Origin: Psammoneis japonica
Lineage: Eukaryota
NCBI GenBank assembly: GCA_008632985.1
Contig: QPGO01000030.1
Span: forward strand, 62,001-126,000
Direction: 5' to 3'
DNA length: 64,000 nucleotides
Translations under genes and position numbers: made by a program
Part shown: positions 308 to 25,699 of the stretch, piece after piece
Position numbering within the stretch: position 1 is the stretch's first letter
Layout of the letters: the number at the start of each line of letters is the position of its first letter
Notes under the pieces: generated by a model
Told to the model about the DNA's origin: nothing
The model's input: the letters and a program-made list of their open reading frames with translations, nothing else
Database searches by the model: none

Positions 308-703
308 TGCACTGTGCTCGGAGAAGGAGTGCAGACAAAAGTGGAGCAAATCACAAAAAGCAAAAAGTGGAAAATCATGAGATGAGATTTGCTTTGGGAT
401 TTTGGGTTTCTCCAAATGAGCTCTCAATGCCCCAAGGCATTCTTTGCACTGCTTCCACAGACCAAAGGCCTTTCGGAGAATCCGGCAGTGATGCAGATTG
501 TCTGGATGCAATCAATTGACACCTTGCGTGTCAACATGGTCTGTTGATCAATTTGCACTTTTTGACATCCAACCAAGTCTGTGTGATTGACCTGCCCTTT
601 GTGCGCACACTTTCGGCTGTGGTGTGGTGTGCCGTTGACATGTGCGAGACAATGCACAGCTGCGAACGGGCATGTTTCTTTCCACTTGGCAGCACATGCT
701 GCA
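308..703 (-). mobile_element. Solo LTR, diverged relative of the LTRs at 3648/6576
   Basis: Starts TGCACTGTGCTCG like the LTRs at 3648 and 6576, shares internal blocks (AAAAGTGGAAA, AAAGGCCTTTCGGAGAA, CAGATTGTC) and ends GCTGCA. Flanked by CACA / CATG, a plausible mutated 4-bp TSD. Confidence 0.7.
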
Positions 704-1814: not shown

Positions 1815-2114
1815 NNNNNNNNNNNNNNNNNNNNNNNNNNNNNNNNNNNNNNNNNNNNNNNNNNNNNNNNNNNNNNNNNNNNNNNNNNNNNNNNNNNNNN
1901 NNNNNNNNNNNNNNNNNNNNNNNNNNNNNNNNNNNNNNNNNNNNNNNNNNNNNNNNNNNNNNNNNNNNNNNNNNNNNNNNNNNNNNNNNNNNNNNNNNNN
2001 NNNNNNNNNNNNNNNNNNNNNNNNNNNNNNNNNNNNNNNNNNNNNNNNNNNNNNNNNNNNNNNNNNNNNNNNNNNNNNNNNNNNNNNNNNNNNNNNNNNN
2101 NNNNNNNNNNNNNN
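1815..2114. other. Assembly gap (300 N)
   Basis: Run of N. Confidence 1.
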
Positions 2115-3647
2115 GTGTGTCAAGTTGTCCACAGTTGAACAAGAAGGGCAATTGATCAGAAAAATGTTGGTCAAGAAATGTGCACGGAAGTGGCAAAACA
2201 ACTGCAAAACAATGACCAGCACAAGGGGCAGTGCACTGAAGTCTTGGCTGACAGCTGTGGCAATCAATGCAGCCAAGCGATGTCAGCACATCTTCATTCT
2301 TTGCAGAGCTGCTCTCGTTGGACCATTGGAATCTGCCCCACAGATGGAGGACAGGAAGAAGTGCACAATGCTGGCTGGCACCTGCAGGCAAAGGCGCTGT
2401 GGCTGCATGGGAGACAATGTGTGGGCGACTCGCAAACCTGCAGCCAAAGCTTTGCCAAAGCTCATTTCTCACTTTTCTGGCTGGCCTTCTTGGAGCATCA
2501 TGCGCACAATTCAACCAAGCTCTTGTTCCTCACAAGGCTGGCGGCAATGAGTGCCAGCAGCGGGGTGTGGGGCACCTGCAGGAGACAGCTTTCTGCCTCC
2601 ATTCACCGCCTCCCATCTCTTCTAAAAGTGGCAGATTTGTTGTTGATGACAAGAAATCAAAACAATGAGATGCAGCTGCGTTGACCACCGCTGCCTCTCA
2701 CATTTTGTTTTGCCACCACTTGGTGCTCTCATCTCATGACAGGCAGCCCTGGGCCTGTTCAGACCCACTGCTGTGAGTGTGCACAAACCAGCTTGAGCAA
2801 GAGGAGCAAACCACATGCGCCAGCATTCTGCACAACAAGTTTGTTGCTGTTCCTTTGTCAGAAAAGCTCTCAAAGCCACAGCCAAGGGTGCACATCAAGC
2901 AAATTTGTGGCGGCTCAGTGGGCACATCAGGAGACCAAGCATTGACTGGGGAGACTTGGAGCCCAGAGCTGGAGGAAACTTTTGGAGAAGGGGCTGCCCC
3001 ACGTGACACTCCAGAAGGCAAAGCTCAAGAGCAAGAAACTCTCAGCATCTCCTGGAGGTTGTCAGCTGCCAGTGTTCCCCTCCAATCCAGACTCACACAA
3101 CCTGCTGCCAACCGCAGTTGTGCTGATGACACAAATGATGCAGCACACCAGAGGTGCAGAGTTGGAGAGGAGCTGTGGCAGTGAACTCCTTCATGCCTTC
3201 AACAAGATCCTCAAGAAACCCAATCCTGCGCCAGCCAACATGCCAAGAGTGCGCTGGCTGGCTCTTCATGAGAGACAAAGCAGCGGGCAAAAGGGGGGCA
3301 CTTCTTGCTCTGCACTGTCAGATGAGAAAACCTCTTGGGCTTGAACTCAGAGCCAAGTGCACTGCCTTTCAATGGGGAGCAGCTGCAAAGCCAAAAGTGG
3401 ATCACCCAAATTTTGATTGGAGCTTCCAAAAAAGACCCCCAAAGCACTGCATGTCATCATGAAGGTGTGTGTCAGTCCCTCCCAGCAGGTCAACAAGATT
3501 GCAGCCAAAAAGCTGTGGCACGTGAGAGCAAGGAAGATGATTTTGGGACTGCAGCCAACTTGTGCCCCATGTTGCTCATCTCCTGCCATGATGTGTCACA
3601 CCCCAGATGATGTTTTGAAGGGTGTCAACAAGCTCACTCAGCACCAG

Positions 3648-4014
3648 TGCACTGTGCTCGAAGAACGAGTGCAAACGAAAGTAGAGCAGTGTGCGAAAAG
3701 TGGAAATTGTGAGGTTGAATTTTGCTCTGTGATTTTTGGTTTCTCCGAACGAGTTCTCAATGGCCTGAAGCTTCTGCACTGCTTCTGCAGACAAAAGGCC
3801 TTTCGGAGAACACATTCGTGACAACAGATTGTCCGGGTGCGATTGCCATTGACACATGAGATGTCAACATCGTCAATCGATCGCACTTGCAATTCTCGAC
3901 ATCCGATCAACTCTGTGTGATCGTTCTGTCCTTTGCACGCATCCACGACTGTGGCGCGATTGACACGCAAATGATGTGTGATCACAAATGTGTGTGCAAC
4001 AGTCGCGTGCTGCA
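3648..4014 (-). repeat. 3' LTR of the Gypsy element
   Basis: Direct repeat of 6576-6942, colinear with no indels and about 33 transitions by hand count. Confidence 0.95.
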
Positions 4015-4027
4015 TTCGCCTCCCCAA
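4015..4027 (-). promoter_or_regulatory. Polypurine tract (plus-strand primer)
   Basis: Minus strand reads TTGGGGAGGCGAA immediately before the TG of the 3' LTR. Confidence 0.8.
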
Positions 4028-6575
4028 TTGCACACCAGAGTCATTTGCAAGTGGACTGTTCGACGGACATCGACAGTGTCAACAATGTCTCCACTTTCAC
4101 TGTGTTGTGCCATTGGCAATGACTGTTGTTGTTTTGTGTGGGCAACGCAGGGCCGCTCCAATTTCCGAATGTCTTTTGAGAGTGACATTGTTTGTTTCTC
4201 ACTTGACATGTGCACACACAGCATTGCGTCGAGCACTCTCATTGACGTTCTTGTTGACATGAACACAAGGACCAATTGTCCTGGAGCAAGTGTTTTTCCT
4301 GACATCGATTGCACACAGCATCGTGCCCAGTGCTTAATGCACGCTCTTGGTCACGGCGTTCACTTGCTTGCTTGTGGATTTCATGCAGTTTGGCGGGCTT
4401 GCTTTGTGTGCCATGTTGCTCTGCTGCACTGCCACGTTTCACAAGCAATGACAAACGATGGTCAAAGATGTCATGACCATTTCGTCTTGACAATCAAATC
4501 CTGTGATGGTTGTGAATTCCATTGTGGATTTTTTTTTTTGCACTTCAACCATCTGTCAGTTGGATTTTAATCGTCATTTGGACGTTTCTTTCTGACATGC
4601 CGGCGCCATTTTGTCATTCCGAAGGCACTGGTTTCGTGCACCAAGTGGACAAATGTCCATTTTTCTTTTCTTTTTCTAGATCTTTGGCACATCTCGTGTG
4701 TCAACATGATGCACATTTTAATGTCTTGCCTCGTACATTGTACAATACAACCGTACGGGTGTTGTGAGATTGTCTTTTGCCAGTGTGAAGTGGATGCGTA
4801 TAATGTACACCAATCTGTCACTGTTTTTTCCTAAATCGTCCTTTAAAAAGGCGATTTTATCCTTGTGACATGAGCATTTTTCGATCTCGCTCGCCTCCAC
4901 GAAAAGTGTTCGTATGATATGTCGCGTCCGACAATTTGGAGGGAATGTCTTTATCCCGTTTTAACGGTAGGACATTGTCGTAGGATTCAATTTTCTATAG
5001 TAAGTCGGCTGATCGCGTCTATCGCGACGATGTTCGCCTTGCCCTCGTTGTATTCTAATTCGGGACTGAAGTTGTCAACGTATGACTTTGTCCGTTGTGT
5101 CTTATGATCCGTATATGTATAAATCTGTTGGCCAAACAGTATATTTCGGAATTTTATAAGTGTTTTCACTATGGACAGAAGTTCTTTTTTTCGTTGTAAC
5201 GTATAATATTGAAATCCGTGTATGATAACAATATAGTTTTTGATTTGATACGCTCCATATTTTCGGAGACTTTTCGTTCCGTACTTGTACTTTTGCCGTT
5301 TGACCTTTATTGAGGTGAATTTGGCTAGTATTGTACAGGAGATCGTTGAGACTACATGTCTCGATAATAGTAACGTATGACAACGAGATGTCGTAGTGTT
5401 CTTTACGTTTTTCTCGTGTTGCGATTGCTTGAATCGCCTCCATTTTCTTTGTAATCGATTGCATATCGTTACGTATGGAAGTCTTGATAGTTTATTTCAA
5501 GTTAAATAGTGAAGGACTTTTGTTGTTAACCTTCTAAGCGACTGTTCTAGTCGTTTGAATGCCGTATTAAGCTGTCACTTGTACAGGTGATATTTTGAAG
5601 TTACTTTTGTCAGGCACAAACGATCACACACAGTCGTTCTGACAACTTCAAACCTGTTATGAGTTCACTCAAGTGTTGTATAAAAATATCTGGGGCTCTA
5701 TAGATTCTCATTGGAAGTCCACAGCACTCATTTTCTCCCCACGGCATGATTTTCGTGTGAGCACGACGTGTGCTTTTTTTATTTGACATGGTGGCATTCC
5801 ATGTTTGAATCAAATAGATTACATTATGAAACGTTCTTGCTTCAATAGTGTTTCCTGAATATTGGGTAAAGGATACACCACCTGTATGAACCTTACACTA
5901 AGCTTCTGAGTGTCGGGTGCGGTCGAACTCGACCTGTTTTCTTTGGACAATGAGTCTCAGAGCGACTTGTTCAGAGTGATTTCATTCTTAAGACTTCAAT
6001 CTTTCATAATAGGTCAAACTCCTTTTGATTGGACGCCTCCAAAGACTATGATAGGAGAAGGTTCTCACGCGTCGTGGAATCGCGTCAGATTTTCCACGAT
6101 GAGATCCGCTGATGCTTCCCATGCATTCGTCTGAGGAACTTTTCAAAACGATTTCAACCTCTTAAGAAGAAGATTGAGTTGGTTGTGTTCATTTGGGTTA
6201 GATGCATCGCCGTAGTTGTCACTTGATTAAGATCGATGGCGTGACAATGTGAGTCGAGGACCATTGGTTCCGTCATTGACTCCATTCACGGCGTCACATT
6301 TTTCAATGTGATCGGTTTTCAGCTTGAAAACATCGGCATCGAAGAGTGTGTGAACATTCTTCATAAGGTAATTGCTTCTTCCCATTAGATTTCTGCATTT
6401 GCGTAGTCCAATGTGACTTGCAGGACTGGACATTAAGTCGCGTCCCATGATCACATCATTTGAACCTGAAGAAAATTTGGTGTTTTCAACATGTGCTGTT
6501 TGAATGTCAGTGTGCCTTAAATTTCGCATGGTGAGAACTGAATTTGGTGTTTACTGTCAGTCGTAAAGAGCTCAA

Positions 6576-6942
6576 TGCACTGTGCTCGAAGAACGAGTGT
6601 AAACGAAAGTAGAGCAGTGTACGAAAAGTGGAAATTATGAGATTAAATTTTGCTCTGTGATTTTTGGTTTCTCCGAACGAGTTCTCAATGGCCTGAAGCT
6701 TCTGTGCTGCTTCTGCAGACAAAAGGCCTTTCGGAGAATGTGTTCGTGACAACAGATTGTCCGGGTACGATTGCTGTTGACACATGAGATGTCAACATCG
6801 TCAATCGATCGTATTTGCAATTCTCGACATCCGATCAACTCTGTGTGATCGTTCTGTCCTTTGCACGCATCCACGACTGTGGCATGATTGACGTGCAAAT
6901 AACACACAATCACAAACATGCACACAACAGTCGCGTGCTGCA
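6576..6942 (-). repeat. 5' LTR of the Gypsy element
   Basis: Direct repeat of 3648-4014. Confidence 0.95.
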
Positions 6943-9900
6943 CCAGCGCTTCTTTTGCACTCAAGCCATTGGCCAAACAGAGCACAGCTTCAGCCCATCA
7001 GCCATTTCTGGCAAATGCCAGCATCAGACAGGAAGCAAAGAAAAAGTTGTTGCAAACTTTGCAAGAGTCATGAGGTGGGGTTTGTGATGAAATCAAGGGA
7101 AAAAACCACCTGCAGAGGCTTGTTGAAAAACTCTGACACAACCAGAGTGCTCAAAGATGACTCACTGCAGAGCATCCTGTTTGCAAGATGTGCGGACACC
7201 CTGGCCTTCCACCCAGTGCCAAACCAGGCCACTGCACAGCACCCACAGAGGCAGCACATGTGTGCTGCAAATTAAAGAAGAAAGACAAGGACCTGCAGCA
7301 AGATGACTTTAAAACAAGATCAGTGCAAAAGGTTGAAGCCAACGGCGCCATTTTGGAGCATGAAAAAAAGGCCATCACAAGATTGTGGGAAATGTCAAAT
7401 TGGTGTCCAGAGGAGGGAAACATCAGAACTGCTGGGGGAGCCTTGGTGCAGCAAAAGATCCTCTGAACACTGGCCTCATTTGTGTGGAAGAGTGGTTGTT
7501 GGCATTGTCAGCCTGTTGAAGAGATGCAAGGAGCTGTTTCCATCCCACACAACTGGGGGAGAGTTGGGTGGAGATTTGCCAACTGGAGATTGTCGAAGCT
7601 GGGAAACCCTGGGAGAGCATGTGTTGCTGTGCTGGCTGGGCAGACCACTGGATGTGCAAGTTGCAGCCACATCTAAAAGCTTGAGACAAGTGGGTGGGGG
7701 GGTCAAACAAGAAGCAGGCACCTGAGCCAAATGGAGGCATGGATCTCATTGATGGCTGGCATCATGTGGTCCATGGAGCACCCACTGGCCACAATTTCAC
7801 TTGCCAAGAAATGGTGTAAAGAGACAGAAAAGTCATTGCTCAAAGCAGCCCAGCCAAAGCTGGAACACCAAAGATCCTCTTCAAGAAAGGTGTCATGCCT
7901 GTCCCAGAAATTTAATGGCGTTGGTCCAATGAAGCTCTGCATTGCCTGGGACCTTTTGAAGCTGTGAGACTCTCATCAACAAGATGACTCTCCATCAATG
8001 GCAGGCTGCAAGAGACACGCTGGTCTTTAAACTCACTGTGTTTCAAAAGTTGGTGTGTCCAGACAGCTGTTTGCCACACACTTGTGCCAGTTTGGAGCAA
8101 CCTGAGCAAAAAAGTTGCTGACAAAGTTGCTGTGGAAATTCTGTTTCAAACATGGTGTTGATCTGCTCACCCTGGCCCGACCAGGCTCCCCCCATGCAGC
8201 ACCAACAACTCTCATTCCTGACAGAGCTGTTTGCCAACTTTGGCTGCAAAGGAGAAATGCTGTGCAAAACCATCATCTGCAGGGGATGGGGGCAAATGTG
8301 TGGTGTGCACGTGTCTGATGCAACAAATTGAAATGGGGCCAGAGCTGCACCAAAACATTGGTGGAGGTGACCCATGTGACTCCCACCACTGTGAACAGTC
8401 CAAAGCTGGACTCCTTCCAAATCTTGCTGAAGACTCTGACACAGGAAGCTCTCACCATGTGGCACTTGTCTGCAGGGTGGGATTCACATCTTAGATGGAG
8501 ACTCAGGAGCCAGCTCAGGAAACCAGTTTCTCCTTGGCTGTGCTCAGTGGCTGGTGAACAACAGAGTGCTCAAAGTGCCGCAATCCACAACAGAGCACTG
8601 CTCCAGACTCCTGGGGCAGTGCAACCAATGCAAGCAAGTGGTGTGTTGCTTCACCAGATGGATTTAAGAAGCACCAACAGATGCTCATCCTGCAGTGCTC
8701 AAATGCTCCAAAGTGGGGGGTCACCAAGAGCACACCAAGGGACACCAATTCAACCCAGCTGGAAGAGATGGAAGAACCAGAGATGAGTGGTCATGTGTTT
8801 CCCACAAGTCAAGTCCAGTTGAGGTGCCTCCCATTGAAAAAATCCTCACCAGTGGAGGAGGAGCCACCAGCATGACCCGTGGCTCCTTCAAAGAGGCTGT
8901 GGCAATGGCCACAATGACTTGTCTTGTCAAACTGGAAAATCTCATCTCACACAGGTGCTGAGGAGCCAAGCCAAACTCAACATCAACTCTCTGACCAAAA
9001 CACAGACAAAGGAGAACTTTGGGGCATCTGCAGCACTCTGCACAAGCTGATGCTCTTGTGCAAAGTGCACATTGTTGATGGAGGCAAGTTTGTCATGGGC
9101 TGCAACAACTGTGACTCTGCCCTCTGTGCATGCAACCACAAACAAATGCAATGCCCCCAGGCAAGCCAGCTGTGATTTGATGAACACAATGCCCCCAGGC
9201 CAGCCAACTGCAATTTGATGTGCCAGGTGAAGAGGATGCAAAAACTGCCAGCCATTGCAGCAGTGCTGGCACAAGAGCTGAAGGCAAGGACACTGAGGTG
9301 TCAAGAGCTGGACCCAAGCAAACTCCACACCTTGAAGCATCAAATGCAGAGACAGATCTCTTGACAAAAGCCTGCTGGCAGGTGCTGGCAGGCACTCCTG
9401 TGCCATTTGACGTGGGACAACAGATGTGCTGGGGGGTGCAAATCTTTGTGGCAGACAAAGCATGGTGGCTCACATGTGGAGCTTCACTTGGGGCACAGCA
9501 TGGTGGCATCACATGTGCGCCAACAAATCCAAAACTTCTGAGCATCTGAAAATTGTGACCACATTTTGGGCAGGTGTGCCAAGGGAAAACACAAGGCAGA
9601 GCTGCCACAGCTGCTGCGCCAGAGGTGCATGAATCGTCTGTTGTCGTTTGTGCACATGCATTTACGCACTCAGTGTGACGCATGGACAACAAGATGATTT
9701 GTGCACCTCTGTGCTGCACCTCTCAACCCTGTCCATCTCCAGATGGCTCACCTGGCTGGTGAAGTGTGCCCAAGCTGAAGAGCCAGGTGGGCTGCAAATT
9801 CTGTTGTGGGGCTGGATGAAGCATTGGCAGCAAAAAAGGCTGTTGCTTTGCTTGGCACAACACTGGCTAAAGCCCCTGGCAAAGAGCCTCAGCTCTGTGT

Positions 9901-10100: not shown

Positions 10101-10949
10101 TCAGGGTGACCACCACTTCAAACTGGTCCTTCGATGGGGTTGTTTTTTGACACACCAGGTCAAACGCAGCTTTCGCTGGGGAAGGAAGATGCATGTCCAC
10201 CAAAGTTGACTGACAATCAGCAAAAATCAGGCAGAAGTGGGCTGGCAGTTTGCTTGCACACACAAAGCACTGCAGCAAAAACACTGCACCACCCACTCAC
10301 TGATGATTTGTGTGCGCGCCAGCAGGACTTCTCAAGAAAAAGTGCTTGTCAAGAAGCTCGCTTGTGGCACAAACGCCACACAAGCAACATTGCTCAGCTC
10401 TGGCATGTCAAATGCTGGGTGCAGCACCAGAAACAAAACAAAGCAAAAGGTTGTGGGAGCTGGCTGGGAAGTGCTTCTCATTCTTTCACCTGTTGTTGGT
10501 GCGTGGCAGGCACTGTGTGGTGGCACACCAGTCAAGAGACATGACGGAAGCTCTTGAAGGAAAGCAGCAGGTGCTTTTTAACAGCCAGACAGCCTGCTTT
10601 GTGAGCACACCATGGCTGGCAGCATCGATGGGGCATGGGCTGGCACAGCCGCAAGCAACAAAAAGGGTGTTTGAAAAGCACCCGAAAAGACATGTTAAAA
10701 ATTGAACGGGGATTGAGGGACGGGAGACGACAGACGCACATGATTTGTCCGATTTTCCGAAAAAGAGGCCTTTTGACCTCTTCGGAGTTCTCGTTGCGCC
10801 GCGTTCGCAGAAAACAAAAACACCGACGTCCACAAGATCGCACACAAAACAAACCAGGAAGATCAAGAAGACCTCCTTAGCTACAGCAACGAGAAGAACG
10901 ATAACAGTTGCATCGCCTACGATCGAACAAGAGAAAAGAACAAGACATC

Positions 10950-12665
10950 ATGAAGATTGTCATTGTAGGAGGTGTTGCTGCAGGCGCCAGTGCGGCTGCA
11001 AGAGCGAGACGTTTGGATGAGCGAGCTGAGATCCTTTTGCTCCAGAGTGGACCCGACGTCTCCTTTGCGTCCTGTGGCATGCCTTACTACATTGGCGGCG
11101 AGATTAGGGACCGCGGAAAAATGGCTGTGCAAACTCCCAAGAGCTTGCATGCGAGACTAAACATTGATGTCAAGGTGAACGTGCGAGTCGAGAAAATTCT
11201 CGTTGACGAACAGAAAGTGTCAGTAAAAGACGAAACTACGGGTGACACGACGACGGTGGATTACGATGAACTCGTCTTGGCGGTTGGTGCAGAGCCATTC
11301 AAGCCTCCGATCCCTGGCATTGACCGCAAAGGTCTCATGTCTCTCCGAAACTTGGACGACATGGACAATATAAAGTTCTGGATCGATACCAAGAAGAAGA
11401 ACAGTCCAGGAATGGAAATGCACTGCGTTGTGGCAGGTGCCGGCTTTGTTGGTCTTGAAATGGTGGAGCAACTCGTGAATCGGGGTATCCATGTAACTGT
11501 CGTGGAAATGTTGCCGCAAATTCTCGGTCCTTTGGATGTTGAGATGGCTGCAATTCTTCAGAAAGATCTAGAAGCGCGAGGCGTCACGGTCTTGACAGGC
11601 GATAGCATTGCAGAGTTCAGGCCATCTGACAACGGTGATAGCGACGACACGGTCGTGGTTCTCAAGTCGGGTCGCGCTCTTCCTCCTGCTCAAGTGACAA
11701 TCCTGGGATTAGGAGTTCGTCCCGACACCGCAGTCGCAAAAGATGCTGGAATCGAATGCACCAAGCGAGGCCACATTGCCGTTGACGACTCTCTTCACAC
11801 CTCAGCTCCGCACGTATGGGCCGCTGGCGACGCTGTTGAAGTTCGCAACCCCATACTTGGAGGAGACGCAAAGTGGGCCGTTCCGCTAGCCGGACCAGCT
11901 AATCGTCAAGGAAGAATGGTGGCTGACAACATCTACGGCAAGGGACGCAAGTTCAAAGGCACATACGCTGCTAGCTGCGTGAGAGTTTTCAATTTGCTGG
12001 TTGCTTGCGTAGGCTTGAATGAGAAGTTCCTTGCCGCAAACAATATGCCGTATGAGAGCGTCCATGTTCACCCTGGTAGCCACGCAGGATACTTCCCAGG
12101 CGCTTGCTCTGTGAACTTGAAGCTCATCTTTAACCCCGAGAACGGACAAATCTACGGAGCTCAAGCCGTTGGTGAGGACGGCATTGCCAAGCGTATCGAC
12201 GTCATCTCCACTGCAATGCAGGGCAAATTGACCGTTGAAGATCTTGCCGAGATTGAACTCTGTTACGCCCCTCCCGTTGGCAGTGCAAAAGACCCTGTCA
12301 ACATGGCTGGCATGGCCGCCCAGAACGTCATGGAAGGATTCGTGACCCAGATAGATTGGAAGGATCTTCCCGCGGCAGCACAAGATCCAGACACTATCAT
12401 TCTTGACGTTCGCGGTCCCTCTGAAATACTGAACAATGGAACACTCATTGAGGGGGCCCTCAACATTCCGCTCAATGACCTGAGGGGACGACTCGATGAA
12501 CTCCCCAGGGACAAGCGAATCATTGTTTCTTGTGCCTCAGGGCAGCGGGCGTACTATGGGTGTAGAATCCTCAAGCAGAGTGGCTTTGAACGCGTTGACA
12601 ACTTGAGTGGTGCCTTCAAGACGTATAGCAAGTCGCCGGTCTACATTTCAGGTGTTCCGAATTAG
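10950..12665 (+). CDS. CoA-disulfide/persulfide reductase with C-terminal rhodanese domain (CoADR-RHD / Npsr-type flavoprotein)
   Basis: GGVAAG FAD motif, SFASC redox cysteine, GAGFVG NAD motif, WAAGD, CYAPP dimerisation motif, rhodanese CASGQR. Intronless, 571 aa. Confidence 0.93.
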   Translation: MKIVIVGGVAAGASAAARARRLDERAEILLLQSGPDVSFASCGMPYYIGGEIRDRGKMAVQTPKSLHARLNIDVKVNVRVEKILVDEQKVSVKDETTGDTTTVDYDELVLAVGAEPFKPPIPGIDRKGLMSLRNLDDMDNIKFWIDTKKKNSPGMEMHCVVAGAGFVGLEMVEQLVNRGIHVTVVEMLPQILGPLDVEMAAILQKDLEARGVTVLTGDSIAEFRPSDNGDSDDTVVVLKSGRALPPAQVTILGLGVRPDTAVAKDAGIECTKRGHIAVDDSLHTSAPHVWAAGDAVEVRNPILGGDAKWAVPLAGPANRQGRMVADNIYGKGRKFKGTYAASCVRVFNLLVACVGLNEKFLAANNMPYESVHVHPGSHAGYFPGACSVNLKLIFNPENGQIYGAQAVGEDGIAKRIDVISTAMQGKLTVEDLAEIELCYAPPVGSAKDPVNMAGMAAQNVMEGFVTQIDWKDLPAAAQDPDTIILDVRGPSEILNNGTLIEGALNIPLNDLRGRLDELPRDKRIIVSCASGQRAYYGCRILKQSGFERVDNLSGAFKTYSKSPVYISGVPN

Positions 12666-13001
12666 AATTGAGATCGTTGCGTATTTACTCTAGTGAAACA
12701 TTCCATCCGACTGAGAAGGGATTCTACTTTCGAGAAATGATCTACTCTAGAAAAATTATTGCACTAGACTCTAGTTAAGCTTGCTGGGTGCCTGCAAAAC
12801 CTACTTGCAGCAAGTCGCCGGGGTACGTAGCGACTGTTCTTCCAATTAGACTTATCATTGTGCATCAAATTCATACGAAAGAAAACACACCAGGGTTTCA
12901 ACTATCTTAACTCTACATACTAAAGCTTTATTTGTTTGAGAGAGTGGCTTTACAAAAGAGAAAGCCATCTAAAAAGTGGATCTAGTGGCGCGTCGGACAA
13001 T

Positions 13002-14792
13002 TTAGACATTATACTGAACCAGCTCACTAGCAGGTGATCGTTCGTCCGGATCAATCACCAACATGCGTCGAAGCAAGCGAAGAAAAGGACCATCGTCCTT
13101 GTGAATGATAGATTCTAGAGGCAATGCCTTTCTCACAAAGGACGTTGACTCGCTGCTGAGAACGTCACCGACCTGGTGCCTTCCAGACGAATCAAACGCC
13201 CGTTGAGCAATTGGAGAGTTCTTGGCTCGTCTCAGTATGCGCCGTGAGAAGGGGCCAATAATACGTTCCATCAACGCCAAGTGTTCAATGTTATCGTGTG
13301 TCGCAAACAAAAGCTCTCCCATGTAGAGTTCGGCAAGGATGCAGCCGGCACTCCAAAGGTCACTTGGCCTTCCCCATCCCATGGAGAGGATAACCTCGGG
13401 AGCGCGGTACTGGCGCGTATTGACGACGGATGATTTCTTCTCGTCGTCGTATGTGGCACCACCAAAGTCAATAATCTTAATGTCAGTCGATTCTGGAATC
13501 TGATAGACCCGTCCACGCCACTTGTAGGATCGTTCCCGGTAGTTCATCAAGAGTATGTTTTCTGGTCAACACGGACGTGATTCAGAAACAACAAAAGGAA
13601 ACCACTCAGTTGAAATCACCGAAGACCATCGTTCAGAAAAGCGGCAAAATGAAAAGCTGCGTTTGCGTACCTGGTTTCAAGTCGGTGTGGATAAGCCGAA
13701 AGCTATGAAGAAACTCCAAAGTTTCCAAAAGCTGTTTGCAAAAGGGACGGACGCACACCATTGGAAACGGTTGGTAGCTATGCTTTTTCAAAAAGTCATA
13801 GAGGAGGGCCCAAGGTTTTCAAAAACAAGACAAAAGTGTCCACTGAATGTAAAGGCATCATGCATAATGGCACAGTGCGTGATCCCTCTGCCTCCCCGTC
13901 GATTGACGTCTCGGATAATGTCCGCTTCAATCAGCGCCGAATCATAGTATCGCTTCACATTGCGAACAATTTTGATAGCAACCCTACTCTCCCGACGCTT
14001 CCTCCTGGCTCTCTTGTTGCCCCGACTACGTGATCTGCGCTTTTTGAGATCCACACAGTCCAAGACACGGCCAAACGTGCCGCACCCAACCTCCCTTACA
14101 ATTCGAAAACGTTCTGCAACTACCGTGCCTGGTCCTCCTTGGAAATGTCCAATCGTATCATCCTTGCTAGACGAGGCAGATTCTCCCTTTTGTTGTTTCT
14201 TCTTTGGTGTTTCCTTCCGTACAATTGGCTTTTCCTGCTGTTCATCGTCACTTACAACCCCAGCCCGACGACTACGTGGAGACGGTGGTGGCGCCGCTGC
14301 TGCTTCATCACGTCGGGAGCTCCTACTGCTACTACTGTACGAATAGGAACTTCTAGATGATGAAGGGCTTCGACTACGATGGCGTCGACGGTAACGATCG
14401 TCGTTCGATGATTCTTCACGACGGTAATCCGGAGAACGCCGTCTCCCACGATCTCGTGAATAAGAACGGCGATACGGCTCATCATCCAAGCGGTGGTGAT
14501 ACCGATCCGATCTCCTATAATTATCTCTTGAATGAGATCTACGACGGCGTTTATGAGGTGGAGAGTAAGGACTGACGCTCCTGCTTCGGCGACGATACGC
14601 TGGACTGTGCGGTCTGCGTCGTTCGCCAGAGTAACGACGCGACGGAGATTCGGAATAGCTGCGGCGGCGGTGATAGTGGCGATCGTCTCCTCGTCGAAAC
14701 GAAGGTGAGCGCTCATGTCGATGTCGCTCTTGGCGTCCACCGCCTTCTCTGCTCCAACCACGATCCTGCCGATGATGCTGGTATCGGTCCAT
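13002..14792 (-). CDS. LAMMER/CLK dual-specificity kinase with RS-rich N-terminus
   Basis: GCGTFG, VAIK, HTDLKPEN (split by a GT-AG intron 13670-13562), DFG, TRQYRAPE, EHLALMERIIG. One-base frameshift near 13805 (GPS-LYDFLK). Confidence 0.92.
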
Positions 14793-15544
14793 TTCTCTTG
14801 TTATGATAGACAACAGAGATTGCAAGACTTTCAGACTTTCACGTTGTTTTGTTGTGCTGCCGCGTGTTGCGTGTTAGTTCTGCGGTTCAAAGTTTTTAGG
14901 TTTCTGAGGTGTGGTCGCGCGACGCGCGATCGATCGTTGTGCGTGCATTCGAGCGTGAAGATCAGCAGTAGTCTCGCGTGCTCTCCAGAAGATTGAATGA
15001 AGTTTAGTTAGTTTTAGGGCCTCTCTAGTAGCTAGAGTAGCTAGTTAGTTAGTTTTTGTGACAGTATTGTACTTAATTTTGAAGTTGCTAACGACGGTTT
15101 CATTGTGAGGCTACCAAACCTGTTTTCTCCTCTTTTACCGAGCACTAACCTTGGAATACCATCATCTATGCATCGTGTGTGCGGGTGGGGGGCTCAACAG
15201 GTAAGCTCGTTACTTGGAGCCAAGTTACCAGCAGAGGGGATGTGGAGGGTACGTTCAAAGATTATACTGGTATCGCAACATGAGAGGTGGATTTGGGGGG
15301 GGGGGGGTGAGGTTGGCTCTTCAACCACGGGAGGAGCGCCATTTGAGCGCAACGATAGTTGGCAACCGCCTGACGAGTAGTACTATTACACGACAACGAG
15401 GTAGGATCGTCACTTTGAGCCAAAGAAGCGATATGGTGGTGGACGCGCTAAGGATATTACCACGGGATATCGATGCCATAATAAGGTGGCGCTGAAGTTC
15501 CGGATGGTTCTTGAAACATTGACGATACTTTTTCTCCTACCTAC

Positions 15545-16330
15545 CTACGCATCTGCACCTCGTCGTTTGTCGGTCCACCAAGCCGGGATGTCTTCCTCCA
15601 TGGAATAGGATTTGGGAATTGTCCCATCCGGCAAGACACGACTGGACAACCATTGAATGAATCGCATAAAAGGCGATCCGACACTCCCATCCATGTCGAT
15701 TCCAAAATGATGCATCATTCCAAAAACCGCGCCCATCCCACCGGTAGTATCTCCCGTGAATCGATCCGTGACATATCCTACCGTTTGATACTCAATTTTA
15801 CCATTCTCATCCCATCGAACAGATCTCGACTCCGGTGGCGCAATCATGGCTTTTCCTGTCGGTGCAATCTCTCCCATGGTGGGATGTTGATATGGTTTTG
15901 CAAAAACTCCACGAGGTCGGACCATGTACCAAACTCGATTCGGTTCGATCGGATCGACACTGAACCCAAAAGTATTCATTGTGAAATCTTCAAAGGCATC
16001 AGAAGGACCGACTGCTGTAAGCGTATTAATCAAATCCTTTTTGGCAAGAGGTCCAATCACTGGTCCCCGAAAGACAAAATCGTCAGACCAATAGTCCGGT
16101 GATGGATTCTCCAAATACTCCTTTGTCATTTGAATTAACCTCTCGTCCGAATAGCAGTTTTGTTCACAGGATTTTGAATTAGAAGGAGAAGAGGCAAACA
16201 GTTTCGTTGTGCGGTGGTGTGGTCTCGTAATTGAAAATGCTTTGACCAACGCACTATCCACCTCACCAAGAAATAACAATGAAAGCAGGGTGAACGCAAG
16301 AGCAGCAGAGAAAACTCTCGGGGTCAGCAT
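15545..16330 (-). CDS. Conserved algal hypothetical protein (SnoaL/NTF2-like), probably plastid-targeted
   Basis: Signal peptide, then VKA-FS and a Ser/Thr/basic transit-like segment. DDFVFRGPVIGPL and GYVTDRFTG..GG.GAVFG motifs. Confidence 0.7.
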   Translation of the reverse strand: MLTPRVFSAALAFTLLSLLFLGEVDSALVKAFSITRPHHRTTKLFASSPSNSKSCEQNCYSDERLIQMTKEYLENPSPDYWSDDFVFRGPVIGPLAKKDLINTLTAVGPSDAFEDFTMNTFGFSVDPIEPNRVWYMVRPRGVFAKPYQHPTMGEIAPTGKAMIAPPESRSVRWDENGKIEYQTVGYVTDRFTGDTTGGMGAVFGMMHHFGIDMDGSVGSPFMRFIQWLSSRVLPDGTIPKSYSMEEDIPAWWTDKRRGADA

Positions 16331-16551
16331 CGTGAATGAGAATAACTTGTTATCACAGATGAAAGAAAAAGAAGAACGACAGACTTGGAACAGAACTTGG
16401 AATGCAACAAAGCTACAAGTACGAAAGTCAAAAGTGGATGGCACCGGCGATCGTCATCATTGTCAGACCTTTATTCCATTTTCCACAACCCACCACGCAA
16501 CACGCAGTGCGCGTTGCGCCTGCGCGCGCGCTCGCTTCGTGGCTCGATCAT

Positions 16552-18252
16552 AGCATGGGTGACTAAAGTCGATACGCAAGACTACAGGAGCGAAAAAAAC
16601 GCGCCGCAAACGACCAACGCCAACACAACCATGATGTTGATGGTTTGAAACGTTTTGAAAAACGAATCGATACAGCACCCGTGCCATTGCCACATGATTA
16701 CAAAACTTGCTTTCACCACGGGAATGCCCCTTCTTCGAGGTTCGCACGGTACGTACTTTCTACGAGACTTTTGTACCAAAGACTGATGAGAGCGCACCGA
16801 ATCTCTTCCTCGGTCGAGTCGCCATAATTTTCAGAATCGCTTCTGGTTCACAGGTCAACCATGAAAGTTATTCATAGCACCCTCTTCTTCACGGCCGTTG
16901 TCTCTACCATGAGCACTGGTGCCGTCGCCAACCCTCTTCCTGCCTCGCTTGTCAACGCTGCAAAGCGCGGTGCAAGCTCGTTTGCGATCAAGGCGACCGA
17001 GACTATTGCAACGATCCGTAAAGACATCCAAGGCAAGTTTATGGCTGTGATCACTCCCGTGGATATCGAAAGCGTCTCCAACGATTACCACAATATCGTC
17101 AGCAATGCCGCTCCCAGCACTACGCCCTTTGAAGAAACTCTCGTCGACTCGAGCTTCTGCGTTTCGTTTGACGACGCCGGGTCGCCCAACAGCTGGGTCC
17201 AACAACTCCTTCGTAACACGACCCCCACTATTGTACCAGTGGAAGCTTCAAACACGTTTTGCGTCTATTTTGAGAATGACAATGGGGACTCCAACGCCGC
17301 CAGTCTCTCACGAATCCTCCACAACAACACTCCGCTTCGAGAACCAACCGCATCGTCACTCAAGACCAGCACTTTTTTGGAAATTGTTTGGGAAATCAAG
17401 TCGGAAATGGCATCAGACACGTTCAGCACGGCTCTTTTGGATATTAAGTCAGGAATGCATCGTATTTGGAACCTTGTAGACGACATGTCGACACGCTTTG
17501 TCACGGAATTGCAGACTCAAGCGACCGTTTTGCAATTGCGCAATACTACTACTACGCAACTTCAGAAGCCAACTTTGTGGAAGCCCGATGATATCGAGTT
17601 CGGGCCGAGCAATTGGTGGAAGAGAGTCGAAGAAGTGTCAAAGTGGGTTCAGACTAGCGTCTCGCAAGGATTCAGGACGACTGCTGCGTCGTTGGGACAG
17701 AAAACCATGTCGACGATCGACGACTTTGGGTTGAGGGAGCACAAGTGGTGGAAGAGAATCCAAGACTTGTCGGAGTTGCTTCAAACCAGCGTTTTGCAAG
17801 GAGGCAAGACGACTGCTATGTTGTTTCAGAAGCCCGACGAATTCGAGTCGACGCTTGACAATTGTTCGAAGAGAATCGACGACATTCAGGCTGCCGTCAT
17901 GAAAGACATCAAGACGTTTTCGCGGCTTTTAGAACCCATTTCTGTGAAAGAGGTCATTGACAATTTGTGGAAAAGAGTAGACGACGTGTCCGAGCGGATT
18001 GAATCTGTTTTGGGCTTTTTACGAATCTCAACCCTGCAAGTGGGACAGAATGCAACCGAAGCGGTTGGGAGTCTCGATTAGCATCTTGGGACGCATAGTA
18101 CTAGTTAGTCACGAGGGGAAAAGTATAGAGCAATATTAATCATGCACCGTCACTACTTTAGCTAGTTGAAATACACAGTGCAATACTTGGAATCGCAGAA
18201 CAGTCCCTCCTTTAGCGAGTTGAATTGAGCGAGTTCTGAGAACTAGAGATTT
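16552..18252 (+). repeat. Left arm of a ~1.7-kb inverted segmental duplication
   Basis: Reverse complement of about 22688-24391, including upstream and downstream flanks. Confidence 0.95.
16861..18081 (+). CDS. Hypothetical secreted/targeted protein with helical WKR[VI] repeats (copy 1)
   Basis: Intact 406-aa ORF with a hydrophobic N-terminus, kept open in both duplicates. Confidence 0.8.
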   Translation: MKVIHSTLFFTAVVSTMSTGAVANPLPASLVNAAKRGASSFAIKATETIATIRKDIQGKFMAVITPVDIESVSNDYHNIVSNAAPSTTPFEETLVDSSFCVSFDDAGSPNSWVQQLLRNTTPTIVPVEASNTFCVYFENDNGDSNAASLSRILHNNTPLREPTASSLKTSTFLEIVWEIKSEMASDTFSTALLDIKSGMHRIWNLVDDMSTRFVTELQTQATVLQLRNTTTTQLQKPTLWKPDDIEFGPSNWWKRVEEVSKWVQTSVSQGFRTTAASLGQKTMSTIDDFGLREHKWWKRIQDLSELLQTSVLQGGKTTAMLFQKPDEFESTLDNCSKRIDDIQAAVMKDIKTFSRLLEPISVKEVIDNLWKRVDDVSERIESVLGFLRISTLQVGQNATEAVGSLD

Positions 18253-20609
18253 ATTCTACAGAGTGTAGTGTACCCTGGGTAATTTTGATTGCTCAATTGG
18301 ATGAATGCTATCATCGCTGTAGGACTGAATCCCATACAGGACTCGATCATTGTCAACCTGGATACAAGCACTCCAAAAAATAAAGCAGAAAGCCCGAAGC
18401 GAAGAGACAGGCCCAGACGAATCAGCACAAAGGCGCTTCGAAAGCGGGAGTGTTGAATGAATCACAGTCGAGTACAGAGGTCCGTGCAGCTGAAGAAGGC
18501 GCTAGCAGTTTGCTCAGTAGACATCACAAGCCAAGTGCAAAGCCACGTATGGCTTCCGGGTTGTCGTTGGTGCTGACAATCTTAATGTACTTGTCAACGA
18601 CACGCATTTGCAAGTTTGCATAGAGAGAAATTTCACAATATAAGCTTGACGAGTCCACGAGTCCTTCCGAGGTTGATCACAGAATCAAGCTACACGAGTA
18701 CTCACTTGCTGTTTCACGGTCAAGGGAAGTTAAGCAAGACAAGTACAATCCATCAGTCTACAAACAGCAGAGCGCATGATTTCTCCTCTAAGTCTAGCTT
18801 TTTCGATTTTTGACTTCCAGCTGGCTTAATTCAGCCAACGTCCCTGTTGATCCCGTATCCTTTTGGTCCCTCTTCATTGTTCCAAGGGCCAACACAGCCT
18901 CCGCCAAACCCAGAACAGCGCTCCATGACGAGTCAGGAGATTCGTATCTGTGCAGCTAGGCAAAACAAATGGCACGACGGACATGACGAACTAGTAGGTA
19001 TCCAGCGGCACAAACCCGGCCAGGACCTGGGACTCAAGCTTCCAAATATCAGCGTCCCACAATAGAAGATCTTGACGGTACAGGTGGTGAATGGTTGGCC
19101 TTCGGTATTGTTCAGACTCAACGACCTGTTGTGCGACTGACGTGTAGGCGTCGTTTCGATTCCCCAGAGAGTAGTATTCTGCGCGGTGAGAATGAAACGC
19201 CGTGCTTGAAGTTCTGCAGATATGAAAGAGCAAGAAAAAGGGTCAACATGATGAGTGCAACTACCGCAAGTCATCCACAATGTCGCCACCCACACTACTT
19301 ACATCAGCACTCTGTCGTCCAATGCATTCTGAAAGGCCGCACTCGCCGCTCGGTGAAAATTGATTTCTCGATCAAACGAGCACGTTACAATTATGGATTC
19401 ACCGAGCTCCGCTACGTCTGGTTTCAAGTCAGAGGGAGCATAGGATAGGCTCGTGCAAACGCCCGGCATGCCGCATCTCTTGCGTGCGCTCCAACGCTGC
19501 TGTGGCCTCGACGGACATCCTACTGCACAACAAAGAAGAAAAGAAGGATAAGCTCTAGAGTGAATACTTGCGAGCACCTCCAAACCATCATGACTCAACA
19601 ACACGCTCTTCACCAATCTCACCTGTATCGCGTTTACGACGACCCACACCACATCTTGTAATCGATTGGGCAGGGAGCAAGACAATACGGTAGCCAGCCC
19701 CATCCTTTCTTGGATGTTCAAACTTTATCAACAAGGAGATAAGACATCGTCGGCACAAACCGAGGGTCATCTCTCTGTGATTCGCCCTATACCCTTGGCT
19801 TCCGACCATCGAATATCGGTAGCAGAGCATCCGTCAAGGACGCCATCGTCTTCGACGAGATCAACCACCTCCATTAACCAGGCTCCGCTTTCGTCGCAGT
19901 CTTGCGCCACGGAGGTTGACATGTCGTTGTGAACCGATTCTTCTGGTGGCGGCGCTGTCTTGGTAGCGCTAACGCTAGACTAGGTTTTCAGCAGCAACAA
20001 CCTTCCCACTCAGGGCAGCGAGTGAGCACATGCCATGCGAGCAAACCACTTTTGTTTGCATGAGCTCCATCATTAGAGATCAATTGGAGCATGTTTTGCA
20101 AATACCCACCATGCACTGCATGACTCCCATTTTAGAAGTATGAATCCGCATCCGGTTCTTGAAGAATGATGTCTTTGGAATAGCTTTAGAGTGCTTTGAG
20201 GTGAGATTGCAACTCCGGTCTCGACAACCAAGAAGCCAAACACCAGGCTGCCGTTTCACAAGGTAGGGCATGGTTGTTTGTTCAGAACAAACATTGTTTG
20301 TCCAACTTGATACAGATTTCCAACACATCCACAGATAAACAGATTCTCATTCCGCATCTTGTTGCTGCTGTAAAGACTTGTTGTGCTCCTCTGGCGTCAT
20401 TAGCATTGGTTCAACATCGCTCAACTCGTGTGATCAAGTCGAATTTTCTTGCGGCCTTGTTTTCGAGCTGACTGTTGTAGAAACCATTTTTCAACACATG
20501 GATCAAAAGTCATGACCATTTGTGTACAGTTCAGCGCAAACAGCAAGCACAAAAGAAAACACAAAAATGATGCTCGCATTTCTTCTGGTTCTTCTTGTAC
20601 CAAAATACA

Positions 20610-21979
20610 ATGGGGACGAGATTAAGTCGAAGTAATGCAAAATACGGTTAGACGGGACGGGCTGTAGCTAGCAGCATCGTCCATCATTCCATCATTGTCG
20701 TTTGCAGGTGAAGTGAAGACTGAAGAAGCATCATCCATCGTCAAGTCGTCCGTCGAATCTGGGCGGACGCGCTCTATGGATAGCGTCTTCGCATCGCTCC
20801 CATTTTCATTTCGTTCACCGTTCACCATGATGGCTGCATCTTCCGACGATAGCACCAACGCTTGCCGCAATTTGTCGATCAATCTAAAAGATGGGTCAGG
20901 TCAAGTAGTGTATACACTTCGCGGTTTAAGAAACGATGATGAAGTAAAATCATGGGTGAGTGTCTCTCTATGGTGGTGTTGTGCTTTTTTTCTGTCGCCA
21001 AAGACCAACGCATCGTTTTGCTCTACTCTTTGCAGGCGGCCTTTTGTGCGAATTGTTTTTCCTACAAACCCAATCCTCCTCCCGTAGAATACTTTGAACG
21101 TCATTTTTTCAATGATCCCAATCGCAAAGCCTCCTTTATTCGGGTGGCAATCGAAAACGAAACGAATCAAATTGTATCTTCTGTGCGTATTTTTGTACGT
21201 TGCATATCCACGGGCAACAAAAATTGCTTGGCGGGGGGTATTGGTGAGGTTTGTACGCTCCCCAATCATCGTCAGCGTGGATTGTCAAAGGCGCTGCTTC
21301 AAGATGCCATTGAAATCATGATGAATAAGCAAAATAACATGAGCTTGTCGCTGTTGCACGCGGCGCCAGCCTTTTTCCCCGTCTATCAAAAGGTGGGATA
21401 CTCGAATGTTACGTCACGATGGTCTATTGTGACTATAGATATGTCAAAATGTATCACTGAAACAAACGACTATGGTGTCCGTTTGGCGGACTTTTCGACG
21501 GATACTGGTCGATTGCAAGTGCTTCATCAACGCTACTCGGAGGAACGTTTTGTGGGTGCATAATTCGTTCTCGTCCGTATTGGAACGAATATCTACAGCA
21601 TGAATTAAAAGGAAGCTTGTGGGTTCTGGAGAATCGTGACTTGCAGATTGCGGCTTGGTTGTCTATTCGCGTCAAGGGTGGTCGTCACGTTGTTGCTGAA
21701 TTTGGTTGTGACGATTCTATTCCACTTCAATGGCCATGGCGTTGTTGTTGCCACGGGCAGTCAATGAGAAGCAAAAATGCATTGAATTGCGTATTCCGAC
21801 ACGTGTCCTGGACGAATTGAAGGACAAGCCAGAGACTGATTTTTTGGATGGGACGACAGAAACTAGTGATGACGATGACGGATGGATGTATCGATCTTTG
21901 CAACCAGAGGTCTTCGCTCAGCATGGCCGAGATTAGCAGTGCTTGTCCTCATTTGATTTGGCCATCTGATTCGTTCTAA
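20610..21979 (+). CDS. GNAT-family N-acetyltransferase
   Basis: GGIGEVCTLPNHRQRGLS acetyl-CoA motif and SLLHAAP..PVYQKVGY. Introns about 20647-20707 and 20957-21035. Ends HLIWPSDSF*. Three apparent frameshifts (~21557, ~21727, ~21910). Start uncertain. Confidence 0.8.
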
Positions 21980-22687
21980 CCACGACCGGCAAATAAGATA
22001 CGTATACCTTTCAGACTTTTAAGCTTTTTCATAAGGTTTGAGAATGTGTGTGAAGTCTCACACCAGCTCTGGAGATACATCTTCGCTCTCGCCTTGTCAA
22101 AGTTGCATGGTTTCGTTTTGGTCCACTCCCTCTCTAGGTTAGGAAGGTATAGGCATGTTGAGTGCTGCTCCTGTTGGTCATGGGTTGGTTAGATAGAAAG
22201 TTCAAACCTCAACGTCCTTTTTGGTGGACCAAGGCGAAAACGAGATTCAATCTGGATTTTCATACCCCGACTTTCCATGCCGCAGCATGTCGTGATGCCT
22301 TCTAGTACTCGCAGCAAGAAAATACACTCATCTTGGATATTAACTGCCCTCGTGACGAGTAAGGAGTAGAGCGGGATAGGACTGAACACACCTTGAACCT
22401 GAATGCAGGTATCGCAATTTCAAACTGCGCTCTACGGAAAATGTTGACTAAACGAATATTCCGCGCTGGCAGCAAGATAAGAGCGGAGAATCCTCTTCGC
22501 GATGGGTATCCATACCTTTGGACAACGTTTCCATGAGCCGCCGCAGCGTTCATACACCTACACAGCTAAACCCTCGTATCCCGTATTGCATGTCTTGATC
22601 GGCACTAAACTAGATATTTCAGTAGCATCATTCATTTCTTCCCATAGCAATCAAAACTGCCAGAGTACAGTACATCCTCTCTAAGAC

Positions 22688-24391: not shown

Positions 24392-24652
24392 GATCCTTCA
24401 GATCGCGCGCAGCGCATGCATGCATGCATGGCAGCGCATGCGGCCATGGCACGGCAGCGCATGTTGGATGTCGGCATGCCGCACTTCCAACATTGACCTC
24501 TAGGACCTAGTGTTCGGTGTGTTTCGTTACGGTACGTTGCGACGACTTACTCTATCAACGCTTGCTAAGTAGACTCCTCCGCTTGAATGGTGATGCCACA
24601 ACGAGGCCATAGCTGTTATTGACTGTAAATCGTTTGTCTTTTCTAGCTAGTC

Positions 24653-25144
24653 ATGAACCATGATGGAAGCAGCCAAGATGAAGCCGCCGTGAACCCGGCC
24701 GAACTTCGTACGAAGATGAAAGAGTACGGAGCTTTTATCGAAACTCTTCACACCGAACTGACCAAGGCGGTGAAAGCAAGAGAAGAGATAGAAAAGCAAA
24801 TCACAGAATATCAACAGCTCAGCAACAAGTTGGTCGCACTGGAGAAACGAAGAAGTCCGTCACTAGAATCGTTGGTGAGCCTTGGTCACGATCTGGCCTA
24901 CTGTCGTGCTGTGATTGACGACACGGCCATGGTTTGTGTTCATGTCGGAATGGGGTTTCACGCGGAATTTGCTCTAGACGAAGCTGTGGCATTCATTCAA
25001 CAGAGGCGTCTTCCTTTTCTAGAAGAAGTGCGCTTGAACCGAGCCGAAAAAGCCAGAACTGTGGCATCCCATCTCGAATCCGCGCTCGTCATTTTGGATG
25101 CACTGGCGAATGATCTCCGTGAAAGAGAAACTGACCAGCATTGA
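24653..25144 (+). CDS. Prefoldin alpha-type subunit (UXT-like)
   Basis: Coiled coil / beta hairpin (LVSLGHDLAYCRAVI..VCVHVGMGFHAEFALDEAVAFI) / coiled coil. Confidence 0.85.
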   Translation: MNHDGSSQDEAAVNPAELRTKMKEYGAFIETLHTELTKAVKAREEIEKQITEYQQLSNKLVALEKRRSPSLESLVSLGHDLAYCRAVIDDTAMVCVHVGMGFHAEFALDEAVAFIQQRRLPFLEEVRLNRAEKARTVASHLESALVILDALANDLRERETDQH

Positions 25145-25699
25145 TAACCTCGGATGTCCATGTGTGTGGCGAGGCTTCACATTGATGAAAACGTAGGTTG
25201 TCAACATTGGGAGGACGGCTGAAGAGAATTTGTTTGCTCGCAAGAAAATTGAAAGTCTGGGATTTTCCGACAGTCTACTTTAGAGTATGTTTTTAAGTAC
25301 AGTCGATGACAATCCAACCGCTCCAACGTTAGGATTACAATTCCTATAGTAATGTGTGACTCGTCTCAGTCGTTGGCATCCAGAAGCTGTTTTTGCTTTG
25401 ACTTCCGTACAAGCGTTCGAGCGGACTTTTTATATGTTTTGCGGGAAACCCATCGAGTAGGCATCTCTAACGTGGTTCGTATTTCTATGCAATCTTCGTC
25501 TTCGAAGCTTCCGGACGATGAGGAGTGGGCGAGCGTGTCGGTTAAAAACAACGGCAATGCCTTTCATTGTTTGGCAACAACAAAGAATGCAAGAAATCGC
25601 GAAAGTTATAAAGATCTGACATTGGGTTCGTAGGAAAAAACGCGTTGAGTGACCTTAGTTCCATTCCATTCCATTCGTCCTGTCGAAACTCGCACAATG

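Follow-up and report, generated by a model that had tools for sequence, protein, structure and literature searches.

Copies of two Gypsy retrotransposon families in the diatom Psammoneis japonica have lost their TpA dinucleotides in an all-or-none manner, in tracts of about a kilobase, and the conversion of TA to CA or TG took place after insertion, on both strands and independently in each copy. We consider it probable that a host mutator acting after insertion turns TpA into TpG or CpA on both strands, within kilobase domains that are on or off copy by copy in silenced parts of the element, and that adenine deamination is its likeliest chemistry. The analysis covers one element, hereafter the window copy, in a 64,000-nucleotide stretch of contig QPGO01000030.1 (the window), together with its relatives elsewhere in the genome.

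The window copy occupies 3648–6942 on the minus strand and is flanked by a CCAG target-site duplication (Table 1). Paired LTRs with TG...CA ends and the target-site duplication agree with Ty3/Gypsy, as does the order RT-RNase H-integrase, seen in a colinear tblastn match to Pol frames carrying PF17917 in which the integrase region comes last. Aligned to the Pol of another family in the genome, the remnant reads protease-RT-RNase H-integrase, the domain names being in part those that we take its motifs to indicate. No autonomous coding capacity was found in any of the 40 copies described below, whose longest sense-strand stop-free run is at most 258 aa. Full-length relatives measure ~4.72 kb; the window copy lacks element positions 2923–4350, a deletion unique to it among the copies compared. 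It is best described as a young member, with an internal deletion, of a non-autonomous Gypsy family. Cysteine and histidine had been noted in its integrase motif where tyrosine was expected. The variant KLERPCVAH is indeed present, and the tyrosine form KLERPYIAY is the commonest among motif-matching copies of the family (13 of 32 matches); the second Gypsy family carries KLEQPYVGPYVI at this motif (9 of 28 matches).

Table 1. Coordinates of the window copy, its TA tracts and a neighboring remnant (positions in the window).
Feature	Position	Strand	Remarks
Older related LTR remnant	308..607	-	74% identical; within TA- and CpG-poor left flank
Left target-site duplication CCAG	3644..3647	+	matching 4-bp duplication in 40/40 aligned copies
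3' LTR	3648..4014	-	TGCA...TGCA ends; nearly all TA erased (1 TA left)
TA-erased tract 1	3648..4728		92–96% of TA sites converted; 3'-terminal ~1.1 kb unit
Degenerate Gypsy pol remnant	4015..6575	-	all frames broken, non-autonomous; aligned to another family's Pol in the genome
Integrase C-terminal GPY/F-like remnant KLERPCVAHTK	4132..4164	-	Cys and His in place of Tyr codons
Recurrent seam	4680..4940		15/56 family tract boundaries in this element interval
TA-retaining tract	4730..6200		4/92 TA and 0/70 CpG sites changed; 99% identity to other copies over 4740–5600; conversion climbing from near 5950
Stop-free stretch, weak RT_RNaseH match	4987..5496	-	PF17917, E=5.8e-5, 23.6 bits (<24.8 cut-off)
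TA-erased tract 2	6200..6942		about 70–76% converted
Junction of ~1.43 kb internal deletion	6573..6576		loss includes 5' leader adjoining 5' LTR
5' LTR	6576..6942	-	8 TA left; vs 3' LTR, 18 TA-class differences and 5 others
Right target-site duplication CCAG	6943..6946	+

The counts that first drew attention to this element hold: there are 5 TA in 3648–4730 and 106 in 4730–6570, where GTATATGTATAAAT begins at 5111. The TA-rich interior is nevertheless shorter than the earlier note had drawn it, being unconverted only to about 5950–6200. Its left transition is a step within ~250 bp (conversion of 96, 96 and 92% up to 4680, then 13, 0 and 0%), and its right transition is gradual (13, 31, 70 and 76%). 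The erased tracts of the window copy have lost 113 of 130 TA and 5 of 79 CpG, against the few changes of the retained tract (Table 1), a contrast in TA far beyond chance. As had also been noticed, CpG persists through the element (observed/expected 0.84–1.29) and is depleted in the flanks (0.12–0.27), where TA is lost as well (0.01–0.05). The left flank includes a 300-base N gap (window 1815–2114). The TA- and CpG-poor flank at 6960–7600 was the only match to itself in a genome search, which means that anciently erased DNA may have no detectable repeat copies now.

Relatives of the window copy (family 1) were collected by three genome DNA searches, in each of which the best 40 of 228, 167 and 207 candidates were scored. 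These yielded 48 further loci, 39 of which had both LTRs aligned and, with the window copy, make up 40 copies; nine (L031, L045, L049, L059, L064, L067, L070, L074 and L076) were dropped for want of a usable LTR pair in range. Rates and singletons were counted on 32 of the 40, excluding divergent or poorly aligned copies (L050, L051, L053, L054, L055, L060, L073 and L077). The three match lists overlap heavily and each contains copies of opposite state; the young subfamily is probably mostly covered, although match numbers are not copy numbers. For family 2, the second Gypsy family, one query gave 42 matches, from which 31 loci were fetched and 27 aligned. Five family-1 loci (L045, L056, L058, L064 and L077) have a related LTR family (80–85% LTR identity) within ~1.5 kb or abutting.

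At 350 TA-class sites across the 40 copies, TA is found in 6695 cells, CA in 3657, TG in 3206 and CG in 98. Both CA and TG occur at 293 of these sites, and such a star of CA and TG states around TA requires a TA ancestor. All copies are broken, and polarity was taken from comparison with outgroup Pol rather than from intact frames. Opposite outgroup tyrosines, Tyr is kept in 255 of 497 cells in retained tracts vs 37 of 383 in erased tracts, where 74 cells read Cys and 86 His (best query; the direction is the same with all 11 queries). The intermixing of CA and TG means that both strands were affected. Copies agree in their choice of CA or TG no more often than expected (0.596 vs 0.605 over 768 pairs in family 1; 0.593 vs 0.604 in family 2), and the two LTRs of a copy differ in 475 TA-class cells vs 136 others. 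Since the copies are independent and sister LTRs differ, the conversions arose on DNA that was already inserted. Earlier editing, of RNA or cDNA, is ruled out by the intermixed strands and the differing sister LTRs. The one case of inherited conversions is L038 (G000:C196:63529-73469), which carries the same 22 conversions in the same part of both LTRs (22/22) with a mostly intact interior; an erased template was apparently passed on, by retrotransposition or by LTR conversion, which would mean that erased copies can still be copied. One practical consequence is that dating by LTR divergence is badly inflated in this genome, because 475 of 611 LTR-pair differences lie at TA-class sites.

The mutation spectrum is narrow. 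A>G was counted in 36.9% of T[A] cells (3763/10193) vs 0.4–1.0% at other adenines, and by context in 49% of TAC, 46% of TAT, 24% of TAG and 20% of TAA. Off target, N[A]T shows a slight excess, and the restriction to TpA is accordingly not absolute. At TATA sites, the two changes of a double hit share a strand at a frequency above expectation in both families (0.75 vs 0.53 and 0.68 vs 0.52; in family 1, CACA 219 and TGTG 151 vs CATG 69 and TGCA 58). These same-strand double hits occur at a spacing of 2 bp only, and no strand-processive runs were found beyond it.

These features fit a host mutator that would act on chromosomal DNA after insertion, converting TpA to TpG or CpA at single sites on both strands. 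Because the spectrum consists of transitions and the motif is so specific, the likeliest chemistry would be deamination of A in 5'-T[A]Y by an enzyme of the TadA/ADAT type; the T[A]Y preference is reminiscent of TadA-type deaminases. Modification of T in RTA would leave an identical sequence outcome. It is a less likely though serious reading that another chemistry writes the same domains: thymine might be modified, or an error-prone, polymerase eta-like enzyme might favor WA/TA sites. In double-stranded sequence, A>G in TAY looks just like T>C in RTA, and the paired TATA changes could mark a very short synthesis patch, but strand coordination is gone beyond 2 bp. Moreover, polymerase eta hits AA and yields transversions, whereas A[A]>G stands at 0.9% here against the value for T[A], and transversions at 0.18% (18 cells).

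The genome has nine PF00383 matches, ordinary-looking dCMP, TadA/ADAT2-like, RibD-like and salvage deaminases as we presume from their motifs; TadA-like and ADAT2-like genes are present, as in any eukaryote. No fusion of a chromatin domain to a deaminase was found in the four open frames scanned. One open frame (L101:313-1785, minus strand, on G000:C79) joins a dCMP/TadA-type deaminase domain to DIOX_N and 2OG-Fe(II) oxygenase domains; it probably serves nucleobase salvage and may be two exons or genes. An identical dCMP-deaminase frame lies on G000:C41:506240 and C317:55748, a possible redundant haplotig in the assembly.

Loss of TA far outruns loss of CpG, as the earlier note proposed. In the erased tracts of the 32 copies, survival is 0.263 for TA vs 0.939 for CpG, with hazards of 1.33 vs 0.063; 74% of TA and 4–5% of CpG have gone, so that TA loss there is about 20–30 times faster than CpG decay. 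The companion claim, that the TA process is not merely downstream of CpG decay, stands insofar as no CpG intermediate appears: CG was not found as an ancestral state of TA-class sites (the 98 CG cells are out of ~13,700), and true CpG sites are 94–96% intact. The two processes are not separate in space, however. Counting CG>TG/CA only, 177 of 4033 CpG are lost in erased tracts vs 35 of 2398 in retained tracts (4.4 vs 1.5%), the loss being higher in the erased tracts of 21 of 24 family-1 copies; in family 2 the figures are 331 of 4102 (8.1%) vs 26 of 1233 (2.1%). CpG loss that is about three times higher in erased tracts implies that the TA and CpG processes share targeting, and methylation may lie upstream of the TA mutator despite the faster loss of TA. 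The mutator would be confined to chromatin domains of kilobase size, and these would correspond to whichever parts of a copy are silenced and CpG-methylated, a suggestion that comes from the 3–4-fold higher CpG decay in the same tracts. Retained tracts show CpG decay too, at the 1.5–2.1% given above.

Conversion by segment is bimodal, mostly below 10% or at 60–90%, and the boundaries between states have a preferred position. In family 1 they cluster 1030–1290 bp from the 3' end (15 of 56 in 260 bp; p=1e-4 under a uniform model, 0.016 when weighted by TA sites), and in family 2 at 843–1255 bp (17 of 44 in 420 bp; p=1e-4 uniform, 0.006 weighted, and 0.04 weighted with a narrower window). The weighted values are modest, and family 2 rests on one query. 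In both families, the state of the 3'-terminal kilobase is independent of that of its neighbor. The states of the terminal zone (0–1030) and the next (1290–1900) are uncorrelated in family 1, where copies scored by eye are erased/intact in 11 cases, erased/erased in 8, intact/erased in 7, intact/intact in 13 and mixed in 1. The corresponding counts in family 2 are 10, 8, 6 and 3 (rho -0.13). At an offset of 1200 bp, the correlation of states is -0.01 and -0.31 from the 3' end vs 0.68 and 0.51 from the 5' end. Both interior queries overlap the zone beyond the seam, and their placement could select for copies intact there, but such selection leaves boundaries in both directions unexplained. The window copy is an erased/intact/erased member of its family.

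The seam lies at a similar distance from the 3' end in the two families yet at a non-homologous base (family-2 position 1178 corresponds to family-1 position 964). A purine-rich run at 4658–4676, considered as a central polypurine tract or nucleosome barrier, is not supported as its cause, since the family-2 seam is not at the homologous base. We found no published account of independent 3'-terminal switching. The terminal ~1 kb behaves as a unit switched on its own, and erasure can take in the two ends of a copy (as in the window copy), only the middle, the whole element or no part of it. Going further, it is possible, though we hold it tentatively, that diatom Gypsy elements comprise at least two independently switchable silencing compartments whose boundary lies ~1 kb inside the 3' end, set for example by antisense transcription from the 3' LTR, and that a DNA adenine deaminase writes their states permanently. 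Were this so, aligned copies would preserve a fossil record of chromatin states within the element and would help to find both guide and enzyme.

A mosaic origin of the retained tracts, in which intact cDNA or gene conversion from unmutated copies overwrote them at a recombination hotspot ~1 kb from the 3' end, appears improbable. It would account for the ~99% identity of retained tracts between copies and for the clustering of boundaries, and L038 suggests that erased templates are copiable. Against it, private changes outside TA and CpG are equally frequent in the two classes (21/34453 retained vs 47/64509 erased, p=0.53, mostly transitions). Nine copies pair an erased LTR with an intact one, and by eye their sub-lineage letters are compatible between the LTRs; no erased pattern is common to two copies. 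Both results also count against overwriting. A nested insertion, named in the earlier note as a possible source of the TA-rich interior, is ruled out: the interior is colinear with full-length copies and up to 99–100% identical to them.

The earlier note had raised mis-assembly in the same connection, and as far as this could be checked none was found. An artefact could arise if a majority vote over random CA and TG copies rebuilt TA, or if erased and intact alleles were collapsed with phase switches, and we judge this very improbable. The logic is sound, in that the majority letters of random CA/TG copies do spell TA; some tracts are intermediate (L033, L046, L050), gaps and duplicated contigs occur in the assembly, and a DNA run departs from the window at two flank positions, does not show its letter at 6108, and has no contig, among the short ones listed, that crosses a tract boundary. 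TA-rich contigs of 75–126 bp are nonetheless present in that same DNA run, at depths of 17.9, 16.4, 26.1, 25.9, 5.2 and 11.6 times single-copy, which track the 18.1, 17.5, 20.1, 21.4, 7.5 and 11.3 assembly copies sharing the same 31-mers (a seventh, variant contig, at 1.8 vs 16.1, is not comparable, and the run may be the assembly's own sample). Retained tracts also carry private changes, and the seam is tied to the 3' end of the element regardless of contig orientation. No allelic pairs, the material for a test of haplotype collapse, occur among the copies. DNA runs X2, X3 and X5 covered 10, 5 and 3 of 30 bins and were left out as evidence.

Least credible of all is an erasure that creeps inward from flanking chromatin or begins at high-copy ends, leaving a gradient from edge to center. 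The earlier note had read the window copy in this way, and its conversion is indeed higher at the edges (0.90) than inside (0.29). In addition, LTRs of the same copy tend to share their state (18/2/7/13, p=0.0008), which favors an effect of the ends. Across the family, though, the outer 700 bp exceed the interior by more than 0.1 in 14 of 40 copies and the reverse holds in 9 (Wilcoxon p=0.32), with intact ends and an erased core in L063, L068, L069, L071, L075 and L078, for example. Family 2 has 10 edge-high copies vs 9 reversed among 27 (p=0.88). This lack of a positional trend in other copies, which the earlier note had set in advance as grounds for giving the idea up, is thus seen in both families, and an edge-inward gradient is largely refuted as a general rule. 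The right boundary of the window copy, although 1.4 kb nearer the end, has the very element coordinate that it has in three full-length copies.

Neither proposed driver of such a gradient fares better. The TA state of the distal flank does not predict that of the LTR (16/13 vs 27/21, p=1.0, 77 ends; rho -0.10, 80 ends), which speaks against spread from flanking chromatin. Beside erased ends in TA-normal DNA there is a margin of ~600 bp that is TA-poor and CpG-normal (TA o/e 0.22–0.27 at 16 ends vs 0.43–0.61 at 13 ends, p=0.09), which hints, weakly, at leakage outward rather than spread inward. Guidance by the highest-copy part of the element finds no support in a coarse test: the LTR is the most repeated part (490 candidates vs 167–228; summed depth 42–51k vs 3–13k) and not the most erased. 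Erasure peaks at element 2750–3500 (0.58–0.63 to 3500), above the LTR columns (0.35–0.53).

The surviving TAs of the right LTR (6600, 6610, 6620, 6636, 6644, 6766, 6812 and 6900) had been taken as a further sign of an edge effect, five of the eight lying in its inner ~70 bp. The count is right for the first 70 bp, but the same columns survive where they are outermost. These 72 columns hold 69 of 127 surviving TA (54%) in 19 converted left LTRs, of which they form the outer edge, and 72 of 183 (39%) in 23 converted right LTRs, vs 22% of the TA in unconverted LTRs. Retention in erased tracts varies with context (TTAA 77%, GTAG 54%, ATAT 3%), and the clustering of survivors is position-specific and partly a matter of sequence context.

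The nearest known system is TpA hypermutation in Bigelowiella natans, described for integrated NCLDV and virophage DNA (Mettrop et al., bioRxiv 10.64898/2026.01.13.699255). According to the available text of that preprint, the spectrum was measured by a mutation-accumulation experiment, the mutations run at ~1000-fold the background, an ADAT2-like deaminase has been put forward without proof, and TpA-depleted coding sequences are enriched in RT and DDE domains (10.64898/2026.01.13.699255). Setting the TA hazard against the 0.6–0.7 private changes per kb found here gives an indirect ratio of similar magnitude. Both systems show TpA>TpG and TpA>CpA on both strands within foreign DNA, and almost only A>G and T>C transitions. 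The settings differ: in the rhizarian, as the preprint's available text has it, the targets are single-copy viral regions of 25–186 kb, with the process measured live and active in some lines only, whereas in the diatom they are 5-kb multicopy LTR retrotransposons and the process is deduced from copies. Sub-element on/off tracts, the seam, the TAY preference, same-strand TATA pairs and co-localized CpG decay are not described for B. natans in that text. TA erasure here is a real feature whose signature matches B. natans hypermutation and whose setting, tracts and seam differ. The open-access literature yielded no report of TpA loss in diatom transposons, the B. natans preprint being the only related account found.

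CpG decay under methylation, involving DNMT5a, has been described for diatom transposons (Hoguin et al., PMC9998398), and the genome studied here has 27 PF00145 matches. As far as that source goes, the two phenomena share TG/CA products and LTR element targets, and the same tracts are enriched for both in our data; the term TpA is absent from its main text. The TA process is unlike CpG decay in going straight from TA to CA or TG and in its speed.

Fungal RIP converts C to T at CpA, creating TpA; it acts after insertion, on both strands and with dinucleotide specificity, and it wrecks transposon coding sequence. The diatom process resembles it in its dinucleotide-specific transitions on both strands after insertion and in the weak sign of leakage into flanks. 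Its direction is opposite, TA>CA/TG as against CpA to TpA. RIP is also set off by duplication alone, and the one inverted duplication available here, described below, is not converted.

Host genes in the window are spared: TA o/e is 0.55 in the gene block at 10700–25700 vs 0.01–0.11 in depleted blocks. Mobile-DNA status is established for the window element and the second Gypsy family only. The genes of the window are eukaryotic. For one of them, the best named relatives are mostly diatoms and one xanthophyte (65–71% identity), and an exact protein look-up gave no match. Within the gene block, an inverted duplication (16552–18278 and 22660–24391) is untouched, with 58 vs 57 TA and 3 TA-type changes among 68 differences, so in this one case duplication alone is no trigger. 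The duplication is recent and 1.7 kb long (longest arm 1281 bp, 97% identical) and holds a 417-aa open frame without a Pfam match.

The B. natans preprint, in its available text, leaves open how the TpA mutator is aimed, and the diatom families narrow the answer. Duplication alone, neighborhood and distance from the edge are disfavored, and kilobase on/off domains within the element, marked by faster CpG decay, are favored. The seam offers a precise site at which to seek guides, be they small RNA, antisense transcripts or 5mC. Elsewhere in the window, further intergenic blocks with TA o/e of 0.00–0.11 and CpG o/e of 0.11–0.28 lie at 25900–28600, 43300–44100, 49300–50600, 55700–56600 and 62900–64000.
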